64,000 nt of DNA. It comes from Microcoleus sp. Lineage in GTDB: Bacteria > Cyanobacteriota > Cyanobacteriia > Cyanobacteriales > Microcoleaceae. The notes beneath the pieces were generated by a model. It was not told where the DNA came from. It did no database searches and saw only the letters and a program-made list of their open reading frames with translations. A program made the translations under genes and the position numbers. The stretch's first letter is position 1. Every line of letters starts with the position of its first letter. The DNA lies in contig JAYFMW010000003.1 of the NCBI GenBank assembly GCA_042408215.1, positions 475,264 through 539,263 on the forward strand, in the 5' to 3' direction. Below, in pieces: positions 24,197 to 37,633 of this stretch.

Positions 24197-25213
24197 ATGA
24201 ATACACAACAAGCCACAGATTTAATTAACCAACCAATTCGAGTAGGCGTGCTCGGCTACGGCGGACTCGGCCAAGCCGCCGCCCGGTTACTCGCTCCCAA
24301 ACGCGAAATGCTCTGGGTAGCCGCCGCCGATCAAAAAGGTTACGCTTATGGCCCAGAAGGCTTAAATTCCCAGAAGTGTGAGGCAATTTACAAGTCTCAA
24401 GGTTCATTAGGTTATTTGGAATCAGCGGGAATTTTGAGCGATCGCAGTATTCAAGAACTCATCCAAACAGCCCAAGGAGTAGACGGCTATTTCCTAGCAT
24501 TACCAAATCTTCCCAACACATTCATGGCATCTGTAGCCAGACAATTTATCGAATCCGGCTGGAAAGGAGTATTAGTTGATGCCATCAAACGCACCAGCGC
24601 CGTCGAACAAATTCTCGCCATGAAATCCGAACTCCAAGCAGCAGGAATTACCTACATGACAGGCTGCGGTGCAACACCTGGGTTACTCACAGCAGCAGCA
24701 GCATTAGCCGCTCAAAGTTACGCAGAAGTGCACAGCGTTAAAATCACCTTTGGAGTCGGAATTGCCAATTGGGAAGCCTACCGAGCCACCATTCGCGAAG
24801 ACATCGCACATTTGCCCGGTTATGATGTACCGAAAGCTCAAGCCATGTCTGATGCAGAAGTGGAAGCGCTGTTAGATACCACCAACGGTTTATTGAAGCT
24901 GGAAAATATGGAACACGCCGATGATATCATGTTGGAATTGGCGGGAATTTGCGATCGCGATCGAGTCACAGTCGGCGGCATCGTCGATACCCGCAATGCC
25001 AAAAAACCCCTGAGCACGAACGTCCAAATTACCGGCCGCACCTTCGAGGGCAAAATCTCAACTCACACCTTTACTTTAGGCGACGAAACCAGCATGGCAG
25101 CGAACGTTTGTGGCCCAGCTTTCGGTTATCTGAAAGCAGGTATCATGCTGCAAAGAAAAGGCATTTCTGGCTTATTCACCGCCGCCGAAATCATGCCTCT
25201 ATTTGTCAGGTAA
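24197..25213 (+). CDS. bioU: (S)-8-amino-7-oxononanoate synthase BioU (NAD(P)-binding, biotin synthesis)
   Basis: GVLGYGGLG Rossmann motif, [19 protein letters not shown] and [10 protein letters not shown], as in cyanobacterial BioU. Confidence 0.82.
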
Positions 25214-25786
25214 TACCAATTTAATGGGTCGTTGCACAGATCTCGATCCCCCTAAATCCCCCTTAAGAAGGGGGACTTTGAGAAGAATCTTGTCCCACCC
25301 TTATTAAGGGGGGCTGGTAATACCAATTTAATGGGTCGTTGCACAGATCTCGATCCCCCTAAATCCCCCTTAAGAAGGGGGACTTTGAGAAGAATCTTGT
25401 CCCACCCTTATTAAGGGGGGCTGGTAATACCAATTTAATGGGTCGTTGCACAGATCTCGATCCCCCTAAATCCCCCTTAAGAAGGGGGACTTTGAGAAGA
25501 ATCTTGTCCCACCCTTATTAAGGGGGGCTGGTAATACCAATTTAATGGGTCGTTGCACAGATCTCGATCCCCCTAAATCCCCCTTAAGAAGGGGGACTTT
25601 GAGAAGAATCTTGTCCCACCCTTATTAAGGGGGGCTGGTAATACCAATTTAATGGGTCGTTGCACAGATCTCGATCCCCCTAAATCCCCCTTAAGAAGGG
25701 GGACTTTGAGAAGAATCTTGTCCCCCCCTTATTAAGGGGGGCTAGGGGGGATCAGATTCTATGCAGCCTCATAAAAAATTGGTATA
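25209..25786. repeat. Tandem array of five 107-bp units of an ATACCAATTT-ended MITE-like repeat (only the last copy complete)
   Basis: Units start at 25209, 25316, 25423, 25530 and 25637; single copies occur at 38457-38601 (inverted) and 62763-62907. Confidence 0.92.
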
Positions 25787-25808
25787 AGCTAAAAATCATC
25801 GTCCTGGA

Positions 25809-26080
25809 CGCACTCTAACCCAAGAAACCGGGTTTTTTGTGAGAATACTGGTTATAGCCTTTAATATCGGTAAAAACCCGGTTTCTGACCACCCCGCACT
25901 CTAACCCAAGAAACCGGGTTTTTTGTGAGAATACTGGTTATAGCCTTTAATATCGGTAAAAACCCGGTTTCTGACCACCCCGCACTCTAACCCAAGAAAC
26001 CGGGTTTTTTGTGAGAATACTGGTTATAGCCTTTAATATCGGTAAAAACCCGGTTTCTGACACCCCGCACTCTAACCCAA
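25809..26080. repeat. Tandem array of three 86-bp units containing AGAAACCGGGTTTT...AAAACCCGGTTTCT hairpins
   Basis: Units start at 25809, 25895 and 25981, with a partial unit at 26066. Confidence 0.9.
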
Positions 26081-26213: not shown

Positions 26214-26696
26214 ATGGCAGAAGTTGAAGTTCTTGTAGAGAGTTTGTGGGAACTTGATGAGGATCAGCTAGAAGCTCAGCTAGGCGATCGTGCACAAGCC
26301 ATAGGGGATGATGTTGCTGGACGTGGAGCAAAAGGGGTAGACCCAGCTTCCTTGGAATCTATTGATGTCAACGTTGCGGCTAGAGCATCCATCGATCCAA
26401 GATTGCTAGATGCTGGTCGCCAGCTTTTCGATCGCATAAACCCCTTAGCTTACGAACTTATGTGCAAACCCCTCGGTGGAGACAATGCAGAGACTCAGAA
26501 GATTTTAGATGAAACAATCAATCAGAACTATACCAAAGCGGCTGGGATGTTGGCTCCTGTTTTAGTCAGTGGACTTGGGTTAGCTCCTGTCCTTGCTACT
26601 CTTCTTGCAACTTTAATTATCAAAAAGATTGCAAATACGGGTGCTACAGCAATTTGCGAGACTTGGGAGAAAACTTTAGCAAAACCCGCAAGCTGA
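26214..26696 (+). CDS. Hypothetical 160-aa protein with acidic N-terminus and C-terminal hydrophobic hairpin
   Basis: GGAG upstream; AAGMLAPVLVSGLGLAPVLATLLATLII hydrophobic stretch; convergent with the caspase cluster. Confidence 0.8.
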   Translation: MAEVEVLVESLWELDEDQLEAQLGDRAQAIGDDVAGRGAKGVDPASLESIDVNVAARASIDPRLLDAGRQLFDRINPLAYELMCKPLGGDNAETQKILDETINQNYTKAAGMLAPVLVSGLGLAPVLATLLATLIIKKIANTGATAICETWEKTLAKPAS

Positions 26697-26720
26697 GTTA
26701 TTTACAAAGATTGGTAATAC

Positions 26721-26830
26721 AGTCCTGGACGCACTCCGACTCCTCGAAACCGGGTTTTTTACCAAATCTGCGCGCTGTAACGCATCTTCTCGCAAAAAAC
26801 CCGGTTTCTGACCACCCGTGCGTCTAGGAG
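26721..26830. mobile_element. MITE-like element with AGTCCTGGACGCA-type TIRs
   Basis: AGTCCTGGACGCAC...GTGCGTCTAGGA; the same ends flank 38305-38397. Confidence 0.6.
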
Positions 26831-27028
26831 TATCATAAAAACTCTGTGAGGCGATCGCACTTTTGTACTCATATCGTTTCTGGTTGTACCGGAATGATTT
26901 AACCGCAGAGAACACAGAGGACACAGAGGGAGAGAATAGAGATCTGAATAATTCCGATGCTACCGGATTTGATATCAGAGGTTTTGTCGGGCGATCGCAC
27001 TTATCTACCCATATTTGCTGCTACGGCG

Positions 27029-30000
27029 TTAAAAACTTTTATCTTTTCCAACTACTTTTGGCACATCGTCGCATAGGCGGCGATCGCTCTTACTAACATT
27101 GGGGTTATTCTGCAAATAGTCACGCACGCGATCGCAACCTTGTTCCAGTAGTTCATCGATTCCTCCTATCCGCCACAACTTAGCAGTGCCGTCCTTGCCA
27201 AGAGTAGCCATTAAGTTGCCATCAGCACTAAGACTTATATTAGTGACTTCGCCTTGATGTTGAGCTTTGAAAGTAGTCAATAATTTTCCTGACATATCCC
27301 ATACATGGATATCAGAGATAGCATCGCCGCCCACACCGATGTTCGCACTAGCTAATAAGTTACCCTGAGTATTAAGACCGATACTATTGAATGTGTTCCC
27401 AGCACCTTTAAACTTAACTAATTCCTTTCCTATCCCAGCCCCCAATTCACTTAAGAAGATATTGCCTCGATCTTGTGGGAACAAGTCGGTAGGTAGTGAA
27501 TTCGCCACTAACAGCCTGCCATCGGAGCTAAAACCAATAATACGCCTAGTTTCACCCAACTTATCGTTAGGACTTACCTTGTCGGGCAAGATTTCCCAGG
27601 TTTTATTATTCAAATTAAACAGATGGATAGTACCATCATTCTCCACGACAGCCAATTGCTTACCATCAGGACGAAAAATAAGCTGGCTAATTGTTTTTTC
27701 AAAATTTCGGGATTTATACAACTCCTTCCCATTCGTGTCCAACAGGCGAATCGTACTATCTTTACCAACTGCCGCCAATTGCTGACCATCAGGGCTAAAA
27801 ATGATTTGACTAATTTTGCCTTGAAAATCTACAAATCGCTTCAACTCATTAGCATTCAAATCCAACAGACGGACAGTGCCATCACTCTCTAAAACAGCTA
27901 GTTGCTTACCATCTGGACTGATGCTGATACTTATTAAGTTCGGAATTTTGCTTAACTCTACCACTGGCTTGTTCTCTATTTCCCACAAGCGAATGGTATG
28001 ATCGTTACCTCGACTCGCAACTTGTCTGCCATTAGAGCTAGAAATAACCTCACGAATACTACCTTGATGGCCTTTAAGTTCAAATTGCAATGCTTGAGAC
28101 AAACTTGATTTAATCGAAGAAGGATCATAAACATCAATAATACCATCACCCTCTTGACCGATAATCAGATGACTACTGGCATCAAAAATGATACTTGAAG
28201 CTCTGCTTATACGTGTAAAATCATTCCACGATTTATCATCTAAACTTCCAAAGTACGCACTACTCATGTCCGCTCCAAAGTCAGCTGCCAAGTGTTGACC
28301 ATCAGGGCTGAAAACGAGATTGCCAAATAATGTCAAGTGAAAATTTTTGAACTCCGCCAACTTCTTCCCCGACACAAAGTCTGACAAGCCGAGGGTATCG
28401 TTAGATTGGGTAGCTACAACTAGCTGGTTGTTGGAGTTAAAGCTAATACTACTGAAATTGTCTTGAGATTTTTTTAATAGCTTTGGTTCACTTTCCGATA
28501 AGTTCCACAGGTAGATAGTCATTGCATAACCCGTCTTAATTCCCCCATTTACATAGGCTACAAGCTGCTTACCATCAGGACTGAACCTGAGCCCACGGTC
28601 ATATACATGGGAATATGTAGACTGTGGAATAGAGGCTACAAACTTTGGTGGCTCTTCTTGTTTTCCTTCTGAGTTCCACAGGCGAACTGTCCCTTGCTCG
28701 TCAATGGTTGCTAATAAGCGACCATCCCGATCAACATCAAGTGTTACTTTACCTTTATGTCCTGAAAATACTTTGGATAGTTTTTGTCCATTCAAGTCTT
28801 GTAAGCGGACAATACCATCATTTCCTGCTGTAGCAATCAGTAACGTACCATCAGGCGTAAAAAACATCTTATTCAAGTCTTGAGGCACTTCTATGCGGTT
28901 ACGTTCTTTAGCTACATAGAATACCTTTCGCAAAGTTTGTAACACTTGAGGTTGAAGCTCAGTGTCTGGTTTTAAAAATGGTAGCTTACTTTCTGGCTTG
29001 AATAAGGATAAGTATCCAGGCCAATCTTTAAGATATTTCTGTGCTCGTAAGCTATCAAGCAACGCATTTAACTCTTGGTTGGGTAAGTTTGCTTCTGCGG
29101 ATAGTCTAGTAGCCCTGATTTGACCTATCAGTGCATTTCTCTCTCCAATCAAAGAAAATACTAAACCTGTACCTAACCCCAGCATTACGCCTAATGCAAT
29201 GCTCCAATTCCGACGAGTATTAAAGCTTTTTCGCCCGACACTGCGCCGCACAAACTCCGCTTCTAATTTGTTCAGCCAGTTGTCCTGGGAATTGAGCTCC
29301 TTTTTGAGCAAATCAAGACGTGGGTTAGCATTCCAGAGATATTCTGCCTGTTGCTGGCTTTCCCACTCTTCAGCGGCAGGTGTCAACCGCCGTTGCAAAA
29401 GTAAACTCTCTTCATTCTCCTGTTTCCACCTCAGCAGCTTTTCCCACCCCCGCACCAAAGCATCATGGGCCGGTTCCACATAGGGATTCCCCTCCGCATC
29501 TTGCCCTTTCACTAACAACCTGGCTGTGCTAAAATGCTCAATTACTTCTTTAACTAAACTATTTCGATCGGGCGGATATTCCAATTCCGATAACGGGACT
29601 TGTCTACGCGCTAACTCACCCCCACCCAGGGCTACCATCCGCAACATCACATCACGAATAACGTGGCTATAAGCTGGATTTTCTTGAACTAGCACCTGAT
29701 ATTCCTCATCAGCTCTTTGAGTCAGTGATAGGATTACTCCTCCCAAGTCTTGATAATCTTCTTGAGTCAGCGCCCGGTCAATTGTTATACCTTCGTTTCC
29801 TGCATCCCATTGTCGCTTTAAATACTTGAGATAAAGTTCGCTCAAAGCAAAAGACAGCAGGGGCAATGCTCCCGGCATATCCGCCACTTCATTAATTAAT
29901 TGTTCTACTAAATCGTGGGGTTGAAAATACATTACCCGTGTTTCTGCGGGTTTCTCAATCGCTTCCCTCAAATCCTTTCGTGTCATCGCGGGGACCATAA

Positions 30001-31471
30001 ATCGTCCGTTGAGCCAACGACCTTTAAGCACTGTATTTCCTACGTTATAGCCTGTGGGGATAAACTGTAAGCCAGCATCTCTAACTTGGGCTTCAAAGTC
30101 AGAACGTAGGCTTAACACTACCCGTAATTTATCCCGATGGGCGTTAATTGCTTTAAGTATTTGTTGGAAAAATTCCTTGCGCTCATCCTCATCTTGACAG
30201 AGTGTAATTATCTCTTCGCTTTGATCGATAAAGATTAATAACTGGGAATTGGGATGATTTTTAGCCAAAACCGCAATACTTTGACTCAGAGTTTTTTGTT
30301 TATTTTGTAATTCAATTTTGGGTAATTGGGCATCAACAAGGGCATTATTCAAGGCTTGAAAAGGTGTTTCTCCGGGGCGGATTGGTGATATAATACACCA
30401 TTTGTCGCTTTTTTCCTGTTTCAATTTAGGAATTAATCCGGCTTTTACCAAACTGGATTTACCTGAACCCGAAGCACCCAAAACCACTGTTAGAGGATTA
30501 GTTTTGACAATATTTTGTAACTTTTCTATTAGTTCGTTTCTACCGAAAAACAGTTTGTTGTGTTCCTCTTCAAACGGTAACAAGCCGCGATAGGGATTTT
30601 TGGAAACATCTAATGGTGGTGCTGGAGGTAGATTTAGCGCGTGTCCTGGTGTCAGGAAAATGTACTCGCCTTTATCGTGTTTTTTGAGGGAATGAATCCC
30701 TGGCGTCTGACGGATCGCACGAGCTTCTGTGGCAATTTCAATGCGATCGCGCAAATACACATAGAGATCGGTTGCCGTAATTACACCATCTCCCGCAGGC
30801 TTACCGGGTGCTGCTGGTGGAAAAGCATCGGCTTTACCCTCAAGTGCTTCTATCAACGCATAAGCAAAGGGTGAATGGCTTCCAATTTGTCCGCGATCGT
30901 CTTTCAGGTTAAAAGCATCCCATGCAGATTGATCGTGGGAAGCCGAAGTTAGAACTTGCCATGCTGGGTCTTGAATGAAGCGATCGTAGCGTTCTTTGTG
31001 GATCGTACCTAGTTCGATCGGAATCGCTTTGCGTAGACTTGACCAGCGAAAAGCACCCGCAAAACAACAGTCAAGAATACCTAAAAAGTGACGACAGGGA
31101 AGTTGAAGCAAGGCTTTATTCACCTCTGACATCGGCAGGTAAGTGCTAACATTGCCCAAGCGAGCACCTGGAGGAATCAGATAGCCTTCGGGGCCATCCT
31201 CGCCATTGAGAGCAATCCCATGTCCAGCATAGTAGAAAAGAAAGCGATCGCCCTTTTGAATTTGTTGTGGCAATTCTATCTCTAATACCTGCCGAAGTTG
31301 GCTGAGGTTAGCTGCTTGATTCAGCAGCAGAGTAACATCGTAATGATGCTCGGTTTCGAGGATACGAGCGATTTCTGTCGCATCACTGACAGCAGTTTTA
31401 AGTGAAGAAATACCGTTGTTGTAGTCGTCAATGCCAATGATTAGGGCGTAGCTGTGTTCAAAGTTTGACAT
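27029..31471 (-). CDS. Caspase-like peptidase C14 + STAND (nSTAND1-like) NTPase + TM + WD40 repeats
   Basis: ALIIGIDDY, FYYAGHG (His), ILDCCFAG (Cys); NPYRGL..F, FFGR, GASGSGKSSLVKAG Walker A, IDQSEE Walker B, LPLLSFALSELY, HDALVRGW; many FSPDG...IRLW repeats. Confidence 0.93.
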   Translation of the reverse strand: MSNFEHSYALIIGIDDYNNGISSLKTAVSDATEIARILETEHHYDVTLLLNQAANLSQLRQVLEIELPQQIQKGDRFLFYYAGHGIALNGEDGPEGYLIPPGARLGNVSTYLPMSEVNKALLQLPCRHFLGILDCCFAGAFRWSSLRKAIPIELGTIHKERYDRFIQDPAWQVLTSASHDQSAWDAFNLKDDRGQIGSHSPFAYALIEALEGKADAFPPAAPGKPAGDGVITATDLYVYLRDRIEIATEARAIRQTPGIHSLKKHDKGEYIFLTPGHALNLPPAPPLDVSKNPYRGLLPFEEEHNKLFFGRNELIEKLQNIVKTNPLTVVLGASGSGKSSLVKAGLIPKLKQEKSDKWCIISPIRPGETPFQALNNALVDAQLPKIELQNKQKTLSQSIAVLAKNHPNSQLLIFIDQSEEIITLCQDEDERKEFFQQILKAINAHRDKLRVVLSLRSDFEAQVRDAGLQFIPTGYNVGNTVLKGRWLNGRFMVPAMTRKDLREAIEKPAETRVMYFQPHDLVEQLINEVADMPGALPLLSFALSELYLKYLKRQWDAGNEGITIDRALTQEDYQDLGGVILSLTQRADEEYQVLVQENPAYSHVIRDVMLRMVALGGGELARRQVPLSELEYPPDRNSLVKEVIEHFSTARLLVKGQDAEGNPYVEPAHDALVRGWEKLLRWKQENEESLLLQRRLTPAAEEWESQQQAEYLWNANPRLDLLKKELNSQDNWLNKLEAEFVRRSVGRKSFNTRRNWSIALGVMLGLGTGLVFSLIGERNALIGQIRATRLSAEANLPNQELNALLDSLRAQKYLKDWPGYLSLFKPESKLPFLKPDTELQPQVLQTLRKVFYVAKERNRIEVPQDLNKMFFTPDGTLLIATAGNDGIVRLQDLNGQKLSKVFSGHKGKVTLDVDRDGRLLATIDEQGTVRLWNSEGKQEEPPKFVASIPQSTYSHVYDRGLRFSPDGKQLVAYVNGGIKTGYAMTIYLWNLSESEPKLLKKSQDNFSSISFNSNNQLVVATQSNDTLGLSDFVSGKKLAEFKNFHLTLFGNLVFSPDGQHLAADFGADMSSAYFGSLDDKSWNDFTRISRASSIIFDASSHLIIGQEGDGIIDVYDPSSIKSSLSQALQFELKGHQGSIREVISSSNGRQVASRGNDHTIRLWEIENKPVVELSKIPNLISISISPDGKQLAVLESDGTVRLLDLNANELKRFVDFQGKISQIIFSPDGQQLAAVGKDSTIRLLDTNGKELYKSRNFEKTISQLIFRPDGKQLAVVENDGTIHLFNLNNKTWEILPDKVSPNDKLGETRRIIGFSSDGRLLVANSLPTDLFPQDRGNIFLSELGAGIGKELVKFKGAGNTFNSIGLNTQGNLLASANIGVGGDAISDIHVWDMSGKLLTTFKAQHQGEVTNISLSADGNLMATLGKDGTAKLWRIGGIDELLEQGCDRVRDYLQNNPNVSKSDRRLCDDVPKVVGKDKSF

Positions 31472-31520
31472 ATAGCGAGCCTAAAAAATTTGTAAGAGTT
31501 TGTAGGGGTAGGCCCCCGTG

Positions 31521-32123
31521 CATTGGTTGGTGTCAACAAACAGGTTAAATGCACTCACAGACTGCTGTTTAACCGTTAGATCTAGATCCCCCCTAGCCCC
31601 CCTTAAGAAGGGGGGGACTGGAAGTGGTCAAAGTCAACCCCTACTCCCCTTTTTCAGGGGGCGGAAGTGGTCAAAGTCAACCCCTACTCCCCTTTTTCAG
31701 GGGGCGGAAGTGGTCAAAGTCAACCCCTACTCCCCTTTTTCAGGGGGCGGAAGTGGTCAAAGTCAACCCCTACTCCCCTTTTTCAGGGGGCGGAAGTGGT
31801 CAAAGTCAACCCCTACTCCCCTTTTTCAGGGGGCGGAAGTGGTCAAAGTCAACCCCTACTCCCCTTTTTCAGGGGGCGGAAGTGGTCAAAGTCAACCCCT
31901 ACTCCCCTTTTTCAGGGGGCGGAAGTGGTCAAAGTCAACCCCTACTCCCCTTTTTCAGGGGGCGGAAGTGGTCAAAGTCAACCCCTACTCCCCTTTTTCA
32001 GGGGGGGACTGGAAGTGGTCAAAGTCAACCCCTACTCCCCTTTTTCAGGGGGATTTAGGGGGATCTCGACTCGGCTATAAGCGAGATTTATCAAAGTTTT
32101 TAGGCTGGTTGTTGACACCAATG
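31521..32123. mobile_element. CATTGG(T)GTCAAC-TIR MITE-like element with an internal 43-bp tandem expansion (10 units), inside a GTAG palindrome
   Basis: 9-bp duplication GCCCCCGTG at 31512-31520 and 32124-32132; unit GGAAGTGGTCAAAGTCAACCCCTACTCCCCTTTTTCAGGGGGC repeated over ~31620-32050. Confidence 0.85.
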
Positions 32124-32187
32124 GCCCCCGTGCCTACCCTGTATCCTCTGGGGCGATCGCAGGTGAATAGCCCCATTGACAAAACAC

Positions 32188-34320
32188 CTATCGCGTGAGT
32201 GTGATTTTAATCTCCTTCGTTGTCCACTCCTGACTCGGATCGAAAATTGCTGTTGCACGATAACCCGGAATTTCTGGTTGAGTATCAACATCAGCACCAA
32301 CCGCAGCCAGAAGTTGTCCAAGTGGATTCTCACCACGGGGTAGTGTTGCTGATTTTTGGTCGATTTCTTGATCGAGTGAGGGCAACTCCAGCCAACGAAA
32401 ATCATTCGGTTTGACCGTCGCAAAAACTTTCAAAGTTTCGGCGCCTTTGGAAGATTTTCCATGATCCGGGAGCTTGATTTGAAGCGGAATTAACATTTCT
32501 TGATTGGGATCGAATGGATAAAAAATCCCCTCTGGTATTTGGAGTTGAATGCGGGAAACCGCCCAGTTTGATTCGAGATCCAGCACAGCAACATTCAAAA
32601 CTTGAGAGTAAGTATTTTTAATTCGCAAGAATGCGTACTCACCAGATTTAACAACTAAATTAGTCGGGTCGGGAAATGGCTGCGGTTTTTTAGGCATCCC
32701 TGGTTGCCAGTTTGGTTGTGTGAGTAATTCCACCTCTAGCTTGTTGGTCAAATCAGAAAATTGATTGCTCAACTGTTGAATCGCCTGATATTTTACTAAA
32801 TGTACCAATCGTTTCACTACTTTTTGTGGAGCATCAGAATCCTCAATCTTTAACGCAGGTGTGAGGTTTTCGATCGGTGTACCAATGCAAATCTCATACT
32901 CCCCTTTTTGATTAACCGCAACTTGATAATCTTCCTTTTGTTGTGCATCCACCAGTTTCAACCAGCCATTTCCTGCCAGTGCTGCCTCGACTGCCTTCAA
33001 TGCAGCATCTTCCTGCTCCTTAATAGCTTGATTCAGTTGATTGTCTTTCTCACCAACCTCTTTTTTGAAAAGGCGTACTCCCCGTACCAAATCAACAGGG
33101 GCTGATAGCATCACTGCTTGAGAACCTTGATCAATCTTGTCCTGACGTAGCACTTCAATTACATCTGCCCAGGCATCAGAAGCACCAACTTTTGTAATCT
33201 CAACGATCGCCACTTGCTGGTTTTTCTGGGTAAAATCTGTCGTGCCAAACCCATAGATTGCGAAGCGATAACCTGGACTGAGACCGTTTTCCATCCCTGC
33301 ATCCAGCCGGACTTGTTTGGGGATTTTCTTCGGTTCTGAGCCTGCCTCAGTGACTTCTTCCTCAATTACTTCAAGCACATTCACAGCATATTGTAAAGAT
33401 CCGCGCTCAACTCCGAAGACAAAGCGATCGCTCTCGCCCACCAGCATTGGCATCTGCTGAGGGAACTTGCTTTGAATTTTCGCACTGATGCGATCGTGCA
33501 ATGTTTTGTACGTCAATCCTGAAGGGCTACTGGTTAAGGTATCAATCATCCAGTACGTCAGCGCCCCATGTCGCTCCTTACCACTCACCGTATACTCTAA
33601 GGCATACTCGCTAGGACGACAAGCAGCTAGCAATACATAATCTTTAGATTGAGGCAGCCAGTGCCCAGGGGTAATACTTGCAGCCGTTTCATCAGTCAGA
33701 GTCTGCCAGTTTTCGATCAGCTCTTGTCGCGAAGCCACCAAGCTTTCCGAGTCTCGGGGTGCTGTGTCGATTTCTCCAATTCCTCGAATTGCAACATCGT
33801 CGCCACGAGTTGCTTCTCCAGAGTGACAGCTATCCATAATAACTGTGACAATCAACCCTTTGTCCGTCATCCGCTTCAACAGTGTCGCCAATTCCACATC
33901 GCGCAGGTAGCGCCCTCCTTCATTGCCAACATCCATTGGTACAATACCTTCATCAGGTTGGTCATTCCCCTTCAGTTCTGGATAGATGGTTGTCATCCGT
34001 CCTCCATGTCCAGAATAGTGAATGTAAACCTGCTCTCCTGGTTGAGCTATTTCTGTAATGGCATGAAACTGCGCCACAATGTTTTCATAAGTGGGTTCTG
34101 GGTATTTGGTTGCGATCGTTTCAGCGACTTCAGGATTCGGAGAAGTCAGCTTGAAAATCTTTTCAGAAGGAATCTTCAGTGTCTCTAAGAGGTAGCTTGC
34201 TACAAGATTGATGTCACCAAAGCATCCTTTAAGATTCTTGTACAACCGATTCGGCTGATAGCCGTCAATGCCAATTAATAAAGCGTAAATGTTCGGTGTT
34301 TGTTCAGATTTGTCAGTCAT
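32188..34320 (-). CDS. Caspase-family (peptidase C14) protease with long C-terminal region
   Basis: IYALLIGIDGY, LKGCFGD, HYSGHG (His), IMDSCHSG (Cys), LLAACRPSEYA, HGALTY; likely start ATG 34320. Confidence 0.92.
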   Translation of the reverse strand: MTDKSEQTPNIYALLIGIDGYQPNRLYKNLKGCFGDINLVASYLLETLKIPSEKIFKLTSPNPEVAETIATKYPEPTYENIVAQFHAITEIAQPGEQVYIHYSGHGGRMTTIYPELKGNDQPDEGIVPMDVGNEGGRYLRDVELATLLKRMTDKGLIVTVIMDSCHSGEATRGDDVAIRGIGEIDTAPRDSESLVASRQELIENWQTLTDETAASITPGHWLPQSKDYVLLAACRPSEYALEYTVSGKERHGALTYWMIDTLTSSPSGLTYKTLHDRISAKIQSKFPQQMPMLVGESDRFVFGVERGSLQYAVNVLEVIEEEVTEAGSEPKKIPKQVRLDAGMENGLSPGYRFAIYGFGTTDFTQKNQQVAIVEITKVGASDAWADVIEVLRQDKIDQGSQAVMLSAPVDLVRGVRLFKKEVGEKDNQLNQAIKEQEDAALKAVEAALAGNGWLKLVDAQQKEDYQVAVNQKGEYEICIGTPIENLTPALKIEDSDAPQKVVKRLVHLVKYQAIQQLSNQFSDLTNKLEVELLTQPNWQPGMPKKPQPFPDPTNLVVKSGEYAFLRIKNTYSQVLNVAVLDLESNWAVSRIQLQIPEGIFYPFDPNQEMLIPLQIKLPDHGKSSKGAETLKVFATVKPNDFRWLELPSLDQEIDQKSATLPRGENPLGQLLAAVGADVDTQPEIPGYRATAIFDPSQEWTTKEIKITLTR

Positions 34321-34372
34321 TTTTAATTCATTGCTCCAGTGTCTTTTATCGGGTAGGGACACTCCAAAAGCC

Positions 34373-34814
34373 CATAGGTGTCAACTTAAGGTCAAACCCA
34401 GTCAGAGACTGTTGTTTGACTATTAAATCTAGATCCCCCCGCATTCTTGCCCCCTACTCAACCCCTACTCCCCTTAAGAAGGGGGGGACAAGAGTCTTCT
34501 CAAAGTCCCCCTTCTTAAGGGGGATTTAGGGGGATCTAGACTTAGGTAAAAACCAGATTTCTCAGGGCTTTCAGGCTTAAGTTGACACCAATGGGCAGTG
34601 CCCATTAGTGTCAACTTAAGCTCAAACCTAGTCACAGATTGCTGTTTGACTATTAAATCTAGATCCCCCCGCATTCTTGCCCCCTACTCCCCCTTAAGAA
34701 GGGGGGGATAAGAGTCCGATCAAAGTCCCCCTTCTTAAGGGGGATTTAGGGGGATCTAGACTTCGCCTAAAAGCGACATTTATTATGGGTTTTAGGCTTA
34801 AGTTGACACCAATG
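34373..34814. mobile_element. Two tandem copies of the CATTGGTGTCAACTTAA-TIR MITE inside a GTAGGGACAC...GTGTCCCTAC palindrome
   Basis: Copy 1 at 34373-34593, 9-bp spacer GGCAGTGCC, copy 2 at 34603-34814. Confidence 0.82.
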
Positions 34815-34853
34815 GGTCCGGCGCCGTGTCCCTACAGATCGATCGCGAATACA

Positions 34854-35756
34854 TCAAGCCATTTGTGCGCGGGTTTTGACAGCGACAATTCCGTCTGGCT
34901 TCAACCCCTTTTTCTGCTGAAATTCCTTGACGGCTTTATCTGTTGCCGGCCCAAATTCACCATCAGCCCCAACTGCAACGCCAGCCTTTTTCAAGCCTTC
35001 CTGAAGCTTGAGGACATCCGAGCCTTCCATTCTGGGCATCGCTAAGCGCAACGTTCTGGGTTTGTTATCCCACGGCGCTTTAGGAAACCCTGGAGCCGGA
35101 GAGCGATTAAGTGCACCCTCGGTTTGCGGGCCAAAGCCGCCATCCTCGCTAATCTTTGCATTAGGATTGTTCTGATTCCAAAGCTGCTGAAATGCGAGTA
35201 TTGATGTACTGCGAAGATCGATCGTGCCCCCGCCTTGGTAGTCGAAGTGAGGTGGATCGTTCGGTAATGGATTCCAGCCATACCGCATTAAATAAGGTTC
35301 CCAGCCTAGGGCATCTTCAATGTCGATCGCTAACCCAGTTTGGTGGTTGCTGGTTCCTGGTGCAGCTACAGGATTAGAGTTGTTGAAGCGATCGTTATAC
35401 AGCAACATTTGTTGGGCGATCGTGCGGTAAGCAGAGTTCACCTGCATCGTTTGACCTCGATCTTGAATCGCTCTCTGGAGTGCCTGTTTTGCAGGGGCTT
35501 GTACATAGGGAAAGGCTGCATCCAGCAAGTCTACATTCAGGTCATCAAAACTGACAAAAGCATCTGGCATCATCAGTTGCATTTGATAAATTAACTGCTG
35601 GGATAAGCCATTGACCACCGCAGTCGAAGACATGGGTGCATCTCGGAGCAATCCGGGGAAACTGCCTTTAATTTCCAACATATCCCGTTGGACAAATTCT
35701 GCACAGGCTTCGACAATTACAGGTTGATTAAATAGAATATCGCTTGAGTCAGTCAT
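34854..35756 (-). CDS. M15-like zinc peptidase (peptidoglycan hydrolase) with C-terminal peptidoglycan-binding domains
   Basis: VNSAYRTIAQQ, SNHQTGLAID (H-x6-D), DPPH; PG_binding_1-like DGEFGPATDKAVKEFQQKKGLKPDGIV. Confidence 0.85.
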   Translation of the reverse strand: MTDSSDILFNQPVIVEACAEFVQRDMLEIKGSFPGLLRDAPMSSTAVVNGLSQQLIYQMQLMMPDAFVSFDDLNVDLLDAAFPYVQAPAKQALQRAIQDRGQTMQVNSAYRTIAQQMLLYNDRFNNSNPVAAPGTSNHQTGLAIDIEDALGWEPYLMRYGWNPLPNDPPHFDYQGGGTIDLRSTSILAFQQLWNQNNPNAKISEDGGFGPQTEGALNRSPAPGFPKAPWDNKPRTLRLAMPRMEGSDVLKLQEGLKKAGVAVGADGEFGPATDKAVKEFQQKKGLKPDGIVAVKTRAQMA

Positions 35757-35895
35757 GGTTTTCTCCAATTAGTTTGAATTTGGTCATTCCTGGATTCACA
35801 AACTCTATCTCTAGGGCGATGCACACCGCACCTTACCCCCACAGATCTTGTAACAATTGCTTGATTGCGTAATTTAAATTGTTACAAAATCGATT

Positions 35896-36801
35896 TTATA
35901 GTCCCAATTTTTTGAGAGTTTGGGCCCCGACAACACCATCCGCCGTTAGCCCTTTTTGCTTTTGAAAAAGCCGCACAGCACTATCGGTGTCTTTGCCAAA
36001 GAATCCATCTGGTTCGATATTGATTCCTGCTGTTTTCAAAGCTTCTTGTACTTGACGAACATCCTCACCTTGCATCATGGGTTCGGTGAGTTTCAAAGTG
36101 CGAGGTGCTTCTGAGATTGTTTCACCTGTTACTTCTTTGCCTGTTCCTTCATAGGTTAAGAATGACTGCCAGGGTTTTCCCAAAAACAGTGCTCGTTCAG
36201 CCAATCGTCGGCGTGTCAGCCCTAGCCAGGGTTGACCATTTACCTTATTCCACACAGGAAACTGATTGGCTGCTCCTTGATAATCTCCGTTGTTCAACAG
36301 CTTCAGAAGAGTTGAACCTCCAAAACCTTTTCTTCCTGGGCCGACGTTGAAGCAGAAACAAACCAGTGCAGAAAACTGATTGTCATTGAGCTGAAATTCA
36401 ACCGCATCCTCAACATAGGATTCAAATTTTTCTAAATCTCCGCTCAGCAATTCTTCTGCTTGCGTTTGGCTAATGGTCATTCCTGGAAACACATCATTAC
36501 CAGTGTGTCCGTAACCAATTGTCAAAACTCCACCGCCATCATCATAGGCAGTTAGTACACATCCTTCAAAGGTAGTTAGAAGCTTGAAACCTGCTTGATT
36601 GATGTGTCTTGAACCTCTGCGTCCTGCTACATCAGGCGGTTGTTTGTCTGGAGGAGCAATGTTGTATGTTTTAGCCACGCTGAACCGTAAAGCATCAATT
36701 AATGTCTCTATGTCTCCATTAGTTTCGGTAACTTTAACGGCTTGGTCGTTCTCAATTTCGTAGACGCGGCCATCGCCGAAGAGTTCAACTGATCTTGGCA
36801 T
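35896..36801 (-). CDS. GH24 (phage-type) lysozyme with N-terminal extension and C-terminal peptidoglycan-binding domain
   Basis: FEGCVLTAYDDGGGVLTIGYGHT (E-x8-D-x5-T), QFSALVCFCFNVG, GLTRRRLAE; DGFFGKDTDSAVRLFQKQKGLTADGVVG; likely start ATG 36801. Confidence 0.9.
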   Translation of the reverse strand: MPRSVELFGDGRVYEIENDQAVKVTETNGDIETLIDALRFSVAKTYNIAPPDKQPPDVAGRRGSRHINQAGFKLLTTFEGCVLTAYDDGGGVLTIGYGHTGNDVFPGMTISQTQAEELLSGDLEKFESYVEDAVEFQLNDNQFSALVCFCFNVGPGRKGFGGSTLLKLLNNGDYQGAANQFPVWNKVNGQPWLGLTRRRLAERALFLGKPWQSFLTYEGTGKEVTGETISEAPRTLKLTEPMMQGEDVRQVQEALKTAGINIEPDGFFGKDTDSAVRLFQKQKGLTADGVVGAQTLKKLGL

Positions 36802-37103
36802 TTTAGTGTATCCTTTTTGGGAGGTAGATTCGGTCAAAAAAAGCATCCTGAGTATCTCGATGGTGCGTGCGGAGCGTCGCACTGCCCTTCGACGGACGTT
36901 TATGCTGACCGCGTAGTCGAAGTGCTCAGGAACCGCGTCAGCCGAAGGTGTCGACACCGCCATCGAAAGTCTTTCTCTGACGAGTGCTTTTGCTGATTAC
37001 GTCTATTCCGGTATTCCAGAGTAAGTTCCGGAATGTTCGCGAATCTTTACAAAAATTCATCCGCCAAGGCGATCGGCTTACCTAATCTCTCGGCTTCGCG
37101 CAA

Positions 37104-37564
37104 TCAAGGAATGCGAATAATTTGCTCATCAACCCAAAACTTACCCGGTTTTTGCACTTCTCCTTCATCAGTCATCAACAGAGGAGTGCCATCTCGTTTT
37201 TCATGGCCATTTCCGCTGGCAAATTCCAAAGCAATTAAAGGTGCTAAATGTTCTCGCCACAGCACGTAAGAACGGCGATATTTTCCCTGTTATGTGCTGA
37301 AACATTCGGCGCGTAGAACCAGTCAGGAGCTTCTGCCCCTTTTTCCGGTGGCTCAGTTTATCGCCAATAAATGCCAGAATCTTGTCCGATGCAGTAGCGT
37401 CCGTCGGGATGTCGCTGTTGCAAAACAGGCCCGATCGAATCGGTGAGAATTATGCTTTGAGGATGCTCCTGAAAATTTTTCACGAAAGTACCGTCAGACT
37501 CAGGAAGTTGTGTATGATCTGGGAATGCGGGGGGCAGATCTATATCAATTAATGTTTCCGACAT
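37104..37564 (-). pseudogene. Uma2 family endonuclease pseudogene
   Basis: PDHTQLPESDGTFVKNFQEHPQS...GQDSGIYWR* continues as TEPPEKGAEAPDWFY, then frameshifts to RRSYVLWREHLAPLIALEFASG...KPGKFWV and is truncated. Confidence 0.82.
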
Positions 37565-37633
37565 AATTTGATGGCGATCGGAGCTATTGTTAGTTATTTG
37601 ATCATATAGTTGAAGGAACAAGAAAGATTAACC

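Follow-up and report, generated by a model that had tools for sequence, protein, structure and literature searches.

The window analysed here, a stretch of 64,000 nucleotides from contig JAYFMW010000003.1 of the cyanobacterium Microcoleus sp. (assembly GCA_042408215.1; coordinates without a locus name are positions in the window), carries a five-gene cassette that brings together two caspase-like proteases, one of them fused to a STAND ATPase and WD40 repeats, with two peptidoglycan hydrolases and a hydrophobic protein of 160 amino acids (aa), which we call hp160. We find that the cassette is real and accessory, patchily spread in filamentous cyanobacteria and situated at several chromosomal sites. 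The hydrolases are very probably caspase-gated zymogens, because conserved sites made of Arg or Lys and a small residue lie behind acidic pro-pieces and are absent from stand-alone homologues of the M15 enzyme. For the complete scheme, in which a membrane-bound STAND receptor would start a two-caspase cascade, the pro-pieces would be cut and the membrane would be opened and the wall digested in the attacked cell, the chances appear to us about even. The argument starts from features that can be observed directly: the set of genes and their intact motifs, the linkage that recurs between them, the conserved sites, the exchange of the sensor and the patchy distribution. No system of this composition was found in the open-access literature, subscription papers and supplementary neighbourhood tables aside, in agreement with the first-pass annotation of this DNA, which knew of none.

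All five open reading frames (ORFs) are present in the window; the genome that carries it is 7.36 Mb in size and the closest named homologues of its hp160 belong to Microcoleus. The gene for hp160 (26214..26696) lies on the plus strand and the other four on the minus strand. The predicted receptor and initiator protease is a protein of 1480 aa (27029..31471) in which Pfam recognizes Peptidase_C14 (caspase A), nSTAND1 (E 4e-104) and WD40, with its catalytic dyad at H84/C136, Walker A at 332-340 and Walker B at 413-420. The predicted executioner, caspase B (32188..34320), is a metacaspase-like C14 protease with a long C-terminal region; Pfam finds Peptidase_C14 in an ORF of 724 aa, of which the most likely start, set from homologues, is the ATG at 34320 (710 aa), and the dyad is H105/C165. 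An M15 zinc peptidase with a peptidoglycan (PG)-binding domain follows (34854..35756; VanY/M15 and PG_binding_1 in Pfam; endolysin PHROG 2649 at E 9e-27; H138/D145/H170), and then a GH24 lysozyme, likewise with PG_binding_1 (35896..36801; E79/D88/T94); comparison with homologues corrected their starts to 35756 (300 aa) and 36801 (301 aa). The ORFs, the Pfam matches and the motif positions thus bear out the five-gene set with intact catalytic and Walker motifs that had been read from the letters of the DNA. The genes for hp160, the lysozyme, the M15 peptidase and full-length caspase B are each present in one copy in the source genome. The first-pass annotation had also seen no phage structural genes nearby, and this stands: none of the 33 other ORFs in the window matches a head, tail or lysis PHROG at E<1e-12, and on this ground we rejected the idea that the locus derives from a prophage.

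The association of these genes recurs in other genomes. A species-level genome scan gave 45 hp160 loci, all titled cyanobacteria except one labelled Sericytochromatia, and after merging of duplicates 62 distinct hp160 loci are available, many of them cut by contig ends, with a C14/CHAT protease within 10 kb in 46 and a wall hydrolase in 36. The full-flank set comprises the 26 distinct hp160 loci, window included, that have at least 5 kb on each side; neighbours were counted within 10 kb and the flanks were annotated with profiles made from the cassette's own genes. Every one of these loci has a C14/CHAT protease (26/26), 23/26 have caspase B and 18/26 a STAND protein, while GH24 and M15 are each found in 18/26 and any peptidoglycan hydrolase in 20/26; at random positions in the source genome the same profiles find a protease in 7.6%, caspase B in 0.3% and a hydrolase in 1.4%. 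The co-occurrence of hydrolases and hp160 with caspases in other genomes, proposed earlier as a check, is thus borne out. Most full-flank loci come from one genus and are non-independent, and since the genomes are kin the counts show linkage and are not to be read as a p-value. The linkage persists through rearrangement and through divergence to about 35% identity: there are no fewer than five distinct gene neighbourhoods in which the cassette is found, and the gene order varies, with the hydrolases beside caspase B, with the hydrolases convergent on hp160, or with all genes co-directional (locus L097).

The distribution is that of an accessory element. We found hp160 in 13/36 genomes of the same genus and 14/401 across the phylum, and caspase B in 26/401; named records with the cassette are from Microcoleus, Argonema and one Leptolyngbyaceae genome. 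At the window's own site, 4/5 relatives have the flanking genes enclosing an ABC transporter with no cassette, and the fifth is rearranged. The composition is likewise not fixed. The STAND partner is C14-fused, CHAT-fused or missing, and relatives may exchange or lack the STAND-caspase, the peptidase or even the hydrolases. Since partners are exchanged in this way between loci, the system is a modular toolkit around caspase-clan proteases, of which the five-gene form is the commonest among the hp160 loci seen.

The evidence that the hydrolases would be kept latent comes from their N-termini. The lysozyme begins with a 62-aa piece that ends at R62 before a glycine, and R62 is invariant in 8/8 homologues. 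Such a front piece is present in 27/28 distinct lysozyme copies whose start lies inside the locus, and in all 27 the junction consists of Arg and a small residue (found by script in 26 and by reading in one). The front piece occurs in 13/401 genomes, all of them among the 14 that have hp160; searches of viral contigs, phage records and the ESM Atlas did not find it. In the M15 peptidase the pro-piece ends at K30 before a glycine. All 31 M15 proteins near a protease have an acidic, Cys-bearing pro-piece of 33-44 aa ending in [RK]-[GA] (30/31 fit the scripted motif and the last reads A-R-A-G), in contrast to those without a protease in the fetched stretch, 16/18 of which have no pro-piece, the other two lying <1 kb from a contig end. 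On a tree of M15 with an open backbone two changes of the pro-piece label are needed, a result compatible with one origin. The M15 peptidase is replaced in three loci by an M74-PGBD-GH19 protein and in two by a C39-like peptidase; R-G precedes the catalytic domain in both kinds of replacement, with R-S in the C39 of Okeania. The acidic pro-pieces of the lysozyme, M15 and hp160 are mutually unrelated and all end in Arg(Lys)-Gly/Ala/Ser, and five unrelated partner families carry a similar predicted site at the same functional position. The Cys of the M15 (31/31) and M74 pro-pieces suggests the idea of a cysteine switch, by analogy with the one known from matrix metalloproteases. The M74-PGBD-GH19 proteins beside caspase B (L043:15652-19638, L055 and L137:5692-11091) have R-G before M74 and again in the linker before GH19, and because of this pair of sites they may be cut into two enzymes.

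The alternative that these genes are merely neighbours on a conflict island, with no shared pathway and with Arg-Gly marking either linkers kept by inheritance or targets of host proteases unconnected with the cassette, bears directly on this evidence. It agrees with the frequent occurrence of caspase B without these partners, with the derivation of most loci from one genus and with the presence of other accessory genes at the insertion site of a relative (L150). We consider it very unlikely, given the site at the same functional position in five unrelated families, the absence of the pro-piece from 16/18 M15 homologues away from proteases and the survival of the linkage through rearrangement and divergence. 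That caspases activate the hydrolases and hp160, as the first-pass annotation proposed, accordingly gains support from the conserved Arg/Lys-small sites predicted behind acidic pro-pieces; the initiator-then-effector order and the permeabilization of a membrane, which belonged to the same proposal, are predictions.

The protease itself is of a type that suits these sites. The closest solved structures to caspase B are type I metacaspases (E 2e-21), the PADLOC model named 'caspase' matches it at E 2e-41, and its C-terminal 390 aa have no Pfam family. The C14 dyad H105/C165 is accompanied by acidic residues, Asp36, Asp123 and Asp163, all invariant in 19 aligned rows, and these Asp residues would line the specificity pocket. 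Behind the catalytic Cys lies a linker (33784..33807, minus strand) in which activating cuts are predicted at R172-G and R179-G; both arginines are invariant in 19/19 aligned homologues, and a divergent caspase B (L040), outside the 19-row alignment, is without the motif. Non-animal C14 proteases prefer Arg/Lys (PMC5756287) and LcCaspase, a defence caspase, cleaves its effector between Arg and Gly (10.1101/2025.11.14.688446). The Arg/Lys-small sites predicted in hp160, the lysozyme and M15 would fit a protease of this type.

The fifth protein, hp160, shows no Pfam family above noise in the 83 members scanned and no match to EACC1 or Pepco (EACC1, which is included in Pfam, was checked in 83 homologues). 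Its structural model, built from 83 sequences (pLDDT 83, pTM 0.82), is all-helical with no beta strand. An acidic N-terminal piece (residues 1-57, median charge -8 among homologues) would be removed by a cut after R57 (codon 26382..26384, plus strand), and in the model this residue terminates a short helix that separates two N-terminal helices from the remainder; the predicted mature part has a median net charge of -1. The site reads A-R-A here and P/T/S-R-G in most homologues. The loop Arg is invariant in 14/14 homologues at 28-36% identity in a loop that is otherwise variable, and [RK][GAS] occurs in this loop in 23/23 homologues below 70% identity versus 27% of other 15-residue windows. A hydrophobic 19-mer follows the predicted cut in 83/83 homologues, and a hydrophobic hairpin spans residues 106-142. 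From this layout of a masked hairpin, that is from hydropathy alone, we infer a role at a membrane. Fold searches gave little further guidance: Foldseek with two models returned no match at E<=0.001, and the best scores of a VIA fold search with two models (Z 5.2 and 5.1, ribosomal hairpins) were not above noise. Compared with Bcl-2/Bid-like, colicin-like and saposin-like proteins, hp160 has the hydrophobic hairpin and its fold searches are at noise level; saposin-like rows for the first model (Z 3.3-3.5) were not taken as evidence. Identification as a gasdermin was rejected, gasdermins being beta-rich and the model of hp160 having no beta strand and its conserved site lying near the N-terminus. 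Viral contigs and plasmids yielded no hp160. Two further observations concern the family: C84 and C148 are invariant in 83 homologues, where a disulfide or lipidation may be considered, and the ESM Atlas holds look-alike clusters at 0.96, two of them led by Pseudomonadota, which we regard as a lead only.

A second role can be imagined for hp160, in which the hydrolases are still caspase-gated but hp160, as a decoy substrate or an inhibitor, would determine the threshold of the protease, the lysins leaving the cytoplasm by another route. It follows proteases (26/26) more tightly than hydrolases (20/26), it is usually encoded on the opposite strand, and PCi is a precedent for a protein that is both cut by PCaspase and inhibits it (10.1101/2023.06.23.546230). 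The hydrophobic segment found in 83/83 homologues behind an acidic removable piece, however, is the layout of an autoinhibited membrane effector, and in loci with only a CHAT protease hp160 is the sole candidate effector seen, so that we hold the inhibitor role to be quite unlikely.

The sensor carries a trace of conflict. The STAND protein has the features of its class, namely an N-terminal effector, an NTPase with intact Walker motifs and C-terminal repeats, and nSTAND1 proteins have been described as conflict sensors (PMC8195603, PMC10907252). By hydropathy it has one hydrophobic helix, a predicted membrane helix at residues 758-776 (29144..29200, minus strand) that follows a basic stretch, and a similar helix is kept at the same point in 12/12 STAND proteins compared. 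The position of this helix between STAND and WD40, together with the charge distribution, suggests that the WD40 propellers lie outside the inner membrane, where they would act as an outside sensor. The helix is also the point at which the type of WD40 is switched: compared with the window, eight close relatives of full length share 83-90% identity in the caspase A domain and 77-85% in the STAND domain, versus 21-31% in the WD40 region, and the other cassette genes in three of these eight loci are 79-92% identical. The more distant L055 shows the reverse pattern, with caspase 51% and WD40 70% identical. Exchange of the WD40 region behind a membrane helix is the pattern that an arms race predicts, and with the patchy presence, the cassette-free site in 4/5 relatives and the lack of prophage context it forms a signature of conflict.

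The first-pass annotation had left the purpose between anti-phage defence and filament fragmentation through necridia. The second of these would make the cassette a developmental module for programmed breakage of trichomes (necridia, hormogonia), which would answer stress or a signal at the envelope, no enemy taking part. In this group trichomes are broken by necridia, cells that kill themselves (PMC13594678), and wall lysis with local anchoring to peptidoglycan would fit the task. In four RNA-library runs from three studies there are contigs over the hydrolase genes and caspase B, one of them spanning both hydrolase genes; these could mean standing expression, although contigs cannot show transcription. 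Against this, necridia are a group-wide trait (PMC13594678) and hp160 was not detected in 23/36 genomes of the genus, most of them >90% complete, and rapid exchange of the sensor is not expected for a developmental signal. The accessory nature of the cassette argues against general necridium machinery, and we judge a developmental module highly improbable.

In the scheme that we prefer, the WD40 propellers, held outside the inner membrane by one helix, would pick up a signal from the envelope, for instance when a phage injects or a predator penetrates, and the STAND ATPase would oligomerize, as known STAND receptors do, switching on the fused caspase A. Caspase A would then cut the R-G linker of caspase B, which would in turn trim the pro-pieces at lysozyme R62, M15 K30 and hp160 R57. 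In the weakest step the hairpin of the 103-aa hp160 fragment would enter the inner membrane like a holin and let the hydrolases, in which we see no signal peptide, reach the wall. The PG-binding domains would keep lysis local, so that a single cell is lost and its filament severed or rescued, a predicted form of bacterial immunity. Lysis of the host through a holin-like hp160 is favoured here because the characterized protease-effector modules kill the host cell and because the enzymes are of endolysin type.

Several observations weigh against this scheme. The hp160 loop window and the other junction windows were picked after the alignments had been viewed, R-G is a common dipeptide and the carrier genomes are kin. 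The pore role of hp160 is read solely from hydropathy, and its gene is on the opposite strand in most loci. Stand-alone M15 homologues likewise have no signal peptide, which implies that a dedicated pore is not needed for that feature, and a GH24 with no front piece stands beside hp160 in Okeania (L094). An outside sensor would differ from characterized STAND (Avs/NLR-like) receptors, which sense in the cytoplasm by binding of a phage protein to their repeats. The partners are also not always together: 6/26 loci of the full-flank set lack a hydrolase within 10 kb, in some hp160 loci (L053, L054, L089, L093) only a CHAT protease is present beside hp160, and among 12 further caspase-B loci not reached through hp160 two have a hydrolase, three end at contig edges and seven, with long flanks, have neither hydrolase nor hp160 nearby.

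The same proteolytic switch could alternatively be aimed at an invading bacterium, in which case the lysozyme and peptidase would digest the wall that encloses an endobiotic predator, whose outer membrane the hp160 fragment would open. Candidatus Cyanoraptor togatus, a Gram-negative predator to which 14/70 strains were susceptible, docks to Microcoleus, enters its cytoplasm and spreads to neighbouring cells (PMC9385608), and hydrolases with no signal peptide would be activated in the same cytoplasm. The cassette is moreover concentrated in the window's genus, and a sensor outside the membrane would suit a docking predator. The predicted mature hp160, on the other hand, is not cationic as typical antibacterial peptides are, hp160 is also present in heterocystous Anabaena, a type outside the reported prey range, and the protease-effector modules characterized so far kill the host cell itself. 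We regard this target as unlikely, though a serious rival to host lysis, and it is with the same reserve that one may picture an exchangeable-propeller receptor detecting a predatory bacterium and a caspase cascade arming lysins and a new pore protein, which would amount to antibacterial innate immunity inside a bacterium.

Returning to host lysis, the cassette is alike in parts to several known systems. Like phage holin-endolysin cassettes, whose timing is set by the holin, it pairs a small hydrophobic protein with GH24 and M15 enzymes of endolysin type (PHROG matches) that have PG-binding domains and lack a signal peptide; it differs from them in being chromosomal, with no phage genes nearby, and in its control, which is predicted to be proteolytic. 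It also resembles the protease-effector modules (alpha/beta-hydrolase-caspase, EACC1-caspase, Pepco, MBL), in which a caspase-like protease likewise stands beside a latent effector, and with which the cassette further shares the Arg-Gly site of LcCaspase, the protease-STAND fusion and a predicted N-terminal removal as in EACC1 (10.1101/2025.11.14.688446). In contrast to these modules the cassette has three predicted effectors, a second caspase and a sensor behind a membrane helix. Peptidoglycan hydrolases are not among the ten effector families of that study, the available main text of which does not contain the word 'lysozyme' (10.1101/2025.11.14.688446), and the EACC1-caspase model NF047832 scores only 65.5 and 18 against its cut-off of 140.

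Two caspase-clan proteases acting as initiator and executioner on several substrates are described for the SAVED-CHAT/PCaspase system of type III-B CRISPR, the substrates there being a sigma factor, a kinase and an inhibitor (10.1101/2023.06.23.546230), whereas the cassette would have a STAND-WD40 trigger and lysins and a hydrophobic protein as substrates. No SAVED family is present among the Pfam matches of the cassette proteins (for the STAND protein, among the best 25 of 55 families), and no Cas model among their PADLOC matches. Bacterial gasdermin systems resemble the cassette in that a predicted membrane effector is encoded next to C14/CHAT proteases, which in some cases are fused to WD40 or NACHT. 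From gasdermins a C-terminal peptide is removed, whereas hp160, all-helical in its model, would be trimmed at its N-terminus, and the accessible part of the source reports no wall hydrolases with gasdermin systems (10.1101/2021.06.07.447441). The cassette thus resembles protease-effector, gasdermin and SAVED-CHAT/PCaspase systems in working and lacks the effector or sensor that defines each of them.

For effectors that attack the wall, the predicted EAD1-lysozyme comes nearest as a precedent; it belongs to the NucA-trypsin conflict systems, described computationally only, which likewise combine a predicted protease cascade, a STAND NTPase and peptidoglycan-attacking effectors in multicellular bacteria; in alphaproteobacteria EAD1 adaptors recruit lysozyme and papain-like peptidases to a trypsin-NucA core (PMC7159879). 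The cassette, unlike these, has no EAD1, NucA or trypsin, and its hydrolases carry predicted cleavable pro-pieces. The words 'lysozyme' and 'peptidoglycan' are absent from the available main text of PMC8195603. Finally, the PADLOC candidate PDC-M35 (10.1101/2024.01.29.577857, M35 being unnamed in the available main text) is similar in pairing a protease with a small protein that has a hydrophobic C-terminal part. PDC-M35B models match 12/14 hp160 homologues weakly (best E 2e-6); in the reciprocal test hp160 profiles against five close Microcoleus M35B proteins gave an hhalign probability of 0.5% and 2-3 bits versus a shuffled maximum of 12.5, and thus rated them no better than shuffled sequences. 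The protease partner of PDC-M35 is trypsin-like, in contrast to the five cassette proteins, among which there is no M35A match. A complete PDC-M35 pair, a trypsin-like protease and an M35B fused to a Phd/YefM-like tail, occurs in a genome of the genus Microcoleus (L151:839-2082).

The surroundings of the cassette are rich in repeats and accessory genes. A 43-bp tandem repeat of 10 copies lies between the two caspase genes (31620..32052) and is not considered functional for the system; together with the tandem and palindromic repeats at 25209-26080 and 34360-34820 (107 bp x5 and 86 bp x3 beside the 43 bp x10) it belongs to the elements around and inside the cassette. The gaps between M15 and caspase B and between caspase B and STAND are repeat-filled here and short in relatives, and elements similar to these repeats predominate in contigs compared with the region. 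A scan for promoters and terminators stayed at chance level. Upstream of hp160, a 338-aa dehydrogenase-like gene (24197-25213, plus strand; weak ELFV_dehydrog match) has no match at E<=1e-50 in five relatives, yet adjoins caspase cassettes here and in L038 and L043, which may mean that it moves together with the island. Upstream of the lysozyme, a broken reading frame (37040-37621, minus strand) has similar copies elsewhere in the genome and beside the CHAT-hp160 locus L053. The same chromosomal site in one relative (L150:2561-5570) holds three other accessory genes, of which the 515-aa one appears trypsin-like by eye, suggesting a hotspot of conflict systems. LCAT-type alpha/beta-hydrolases occur in caspase loci (L114:801-2234, L137:7458-8900, L099:3479-4243 and L030:10266-10703), three called by Pfam, each of the three with a single R-G at residue 193, and that of L030 by its similar N-terminus. 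A run of five genes with PG-binding domains, including an M15 with no pro-piece, has no caspase nearby (L131:8151-13881).

Until now, descriptions of protease-gated defence effectors have covered nucleases, an alpha/beta-hydrolase and pore proteins; the cassette points to wall-lytic enzymes as caspase-cleavable zymogens, which would be a new effector class, and to a new family of helical proteins. The natural substrates of cyanobacterial caspase homologues are, to our knowledge, largely unknown, and exact candidate substrates and cut sites can now be named for them. A review of 2017 counts only one orthocaspase as biochemically characterized (PMC5756287), and the caspase-dependent death of cyanobacteria, long discussed, can be put to a direct test. 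Members of the host group form soil crusts and are hit by epidemics of predators (PMC9385608). Whether the cassette would serve altruistic lysis or an attack on the invader, either bears on the defence of the filament in multicellular bacteria, and the latter, if true, would be categorically new.

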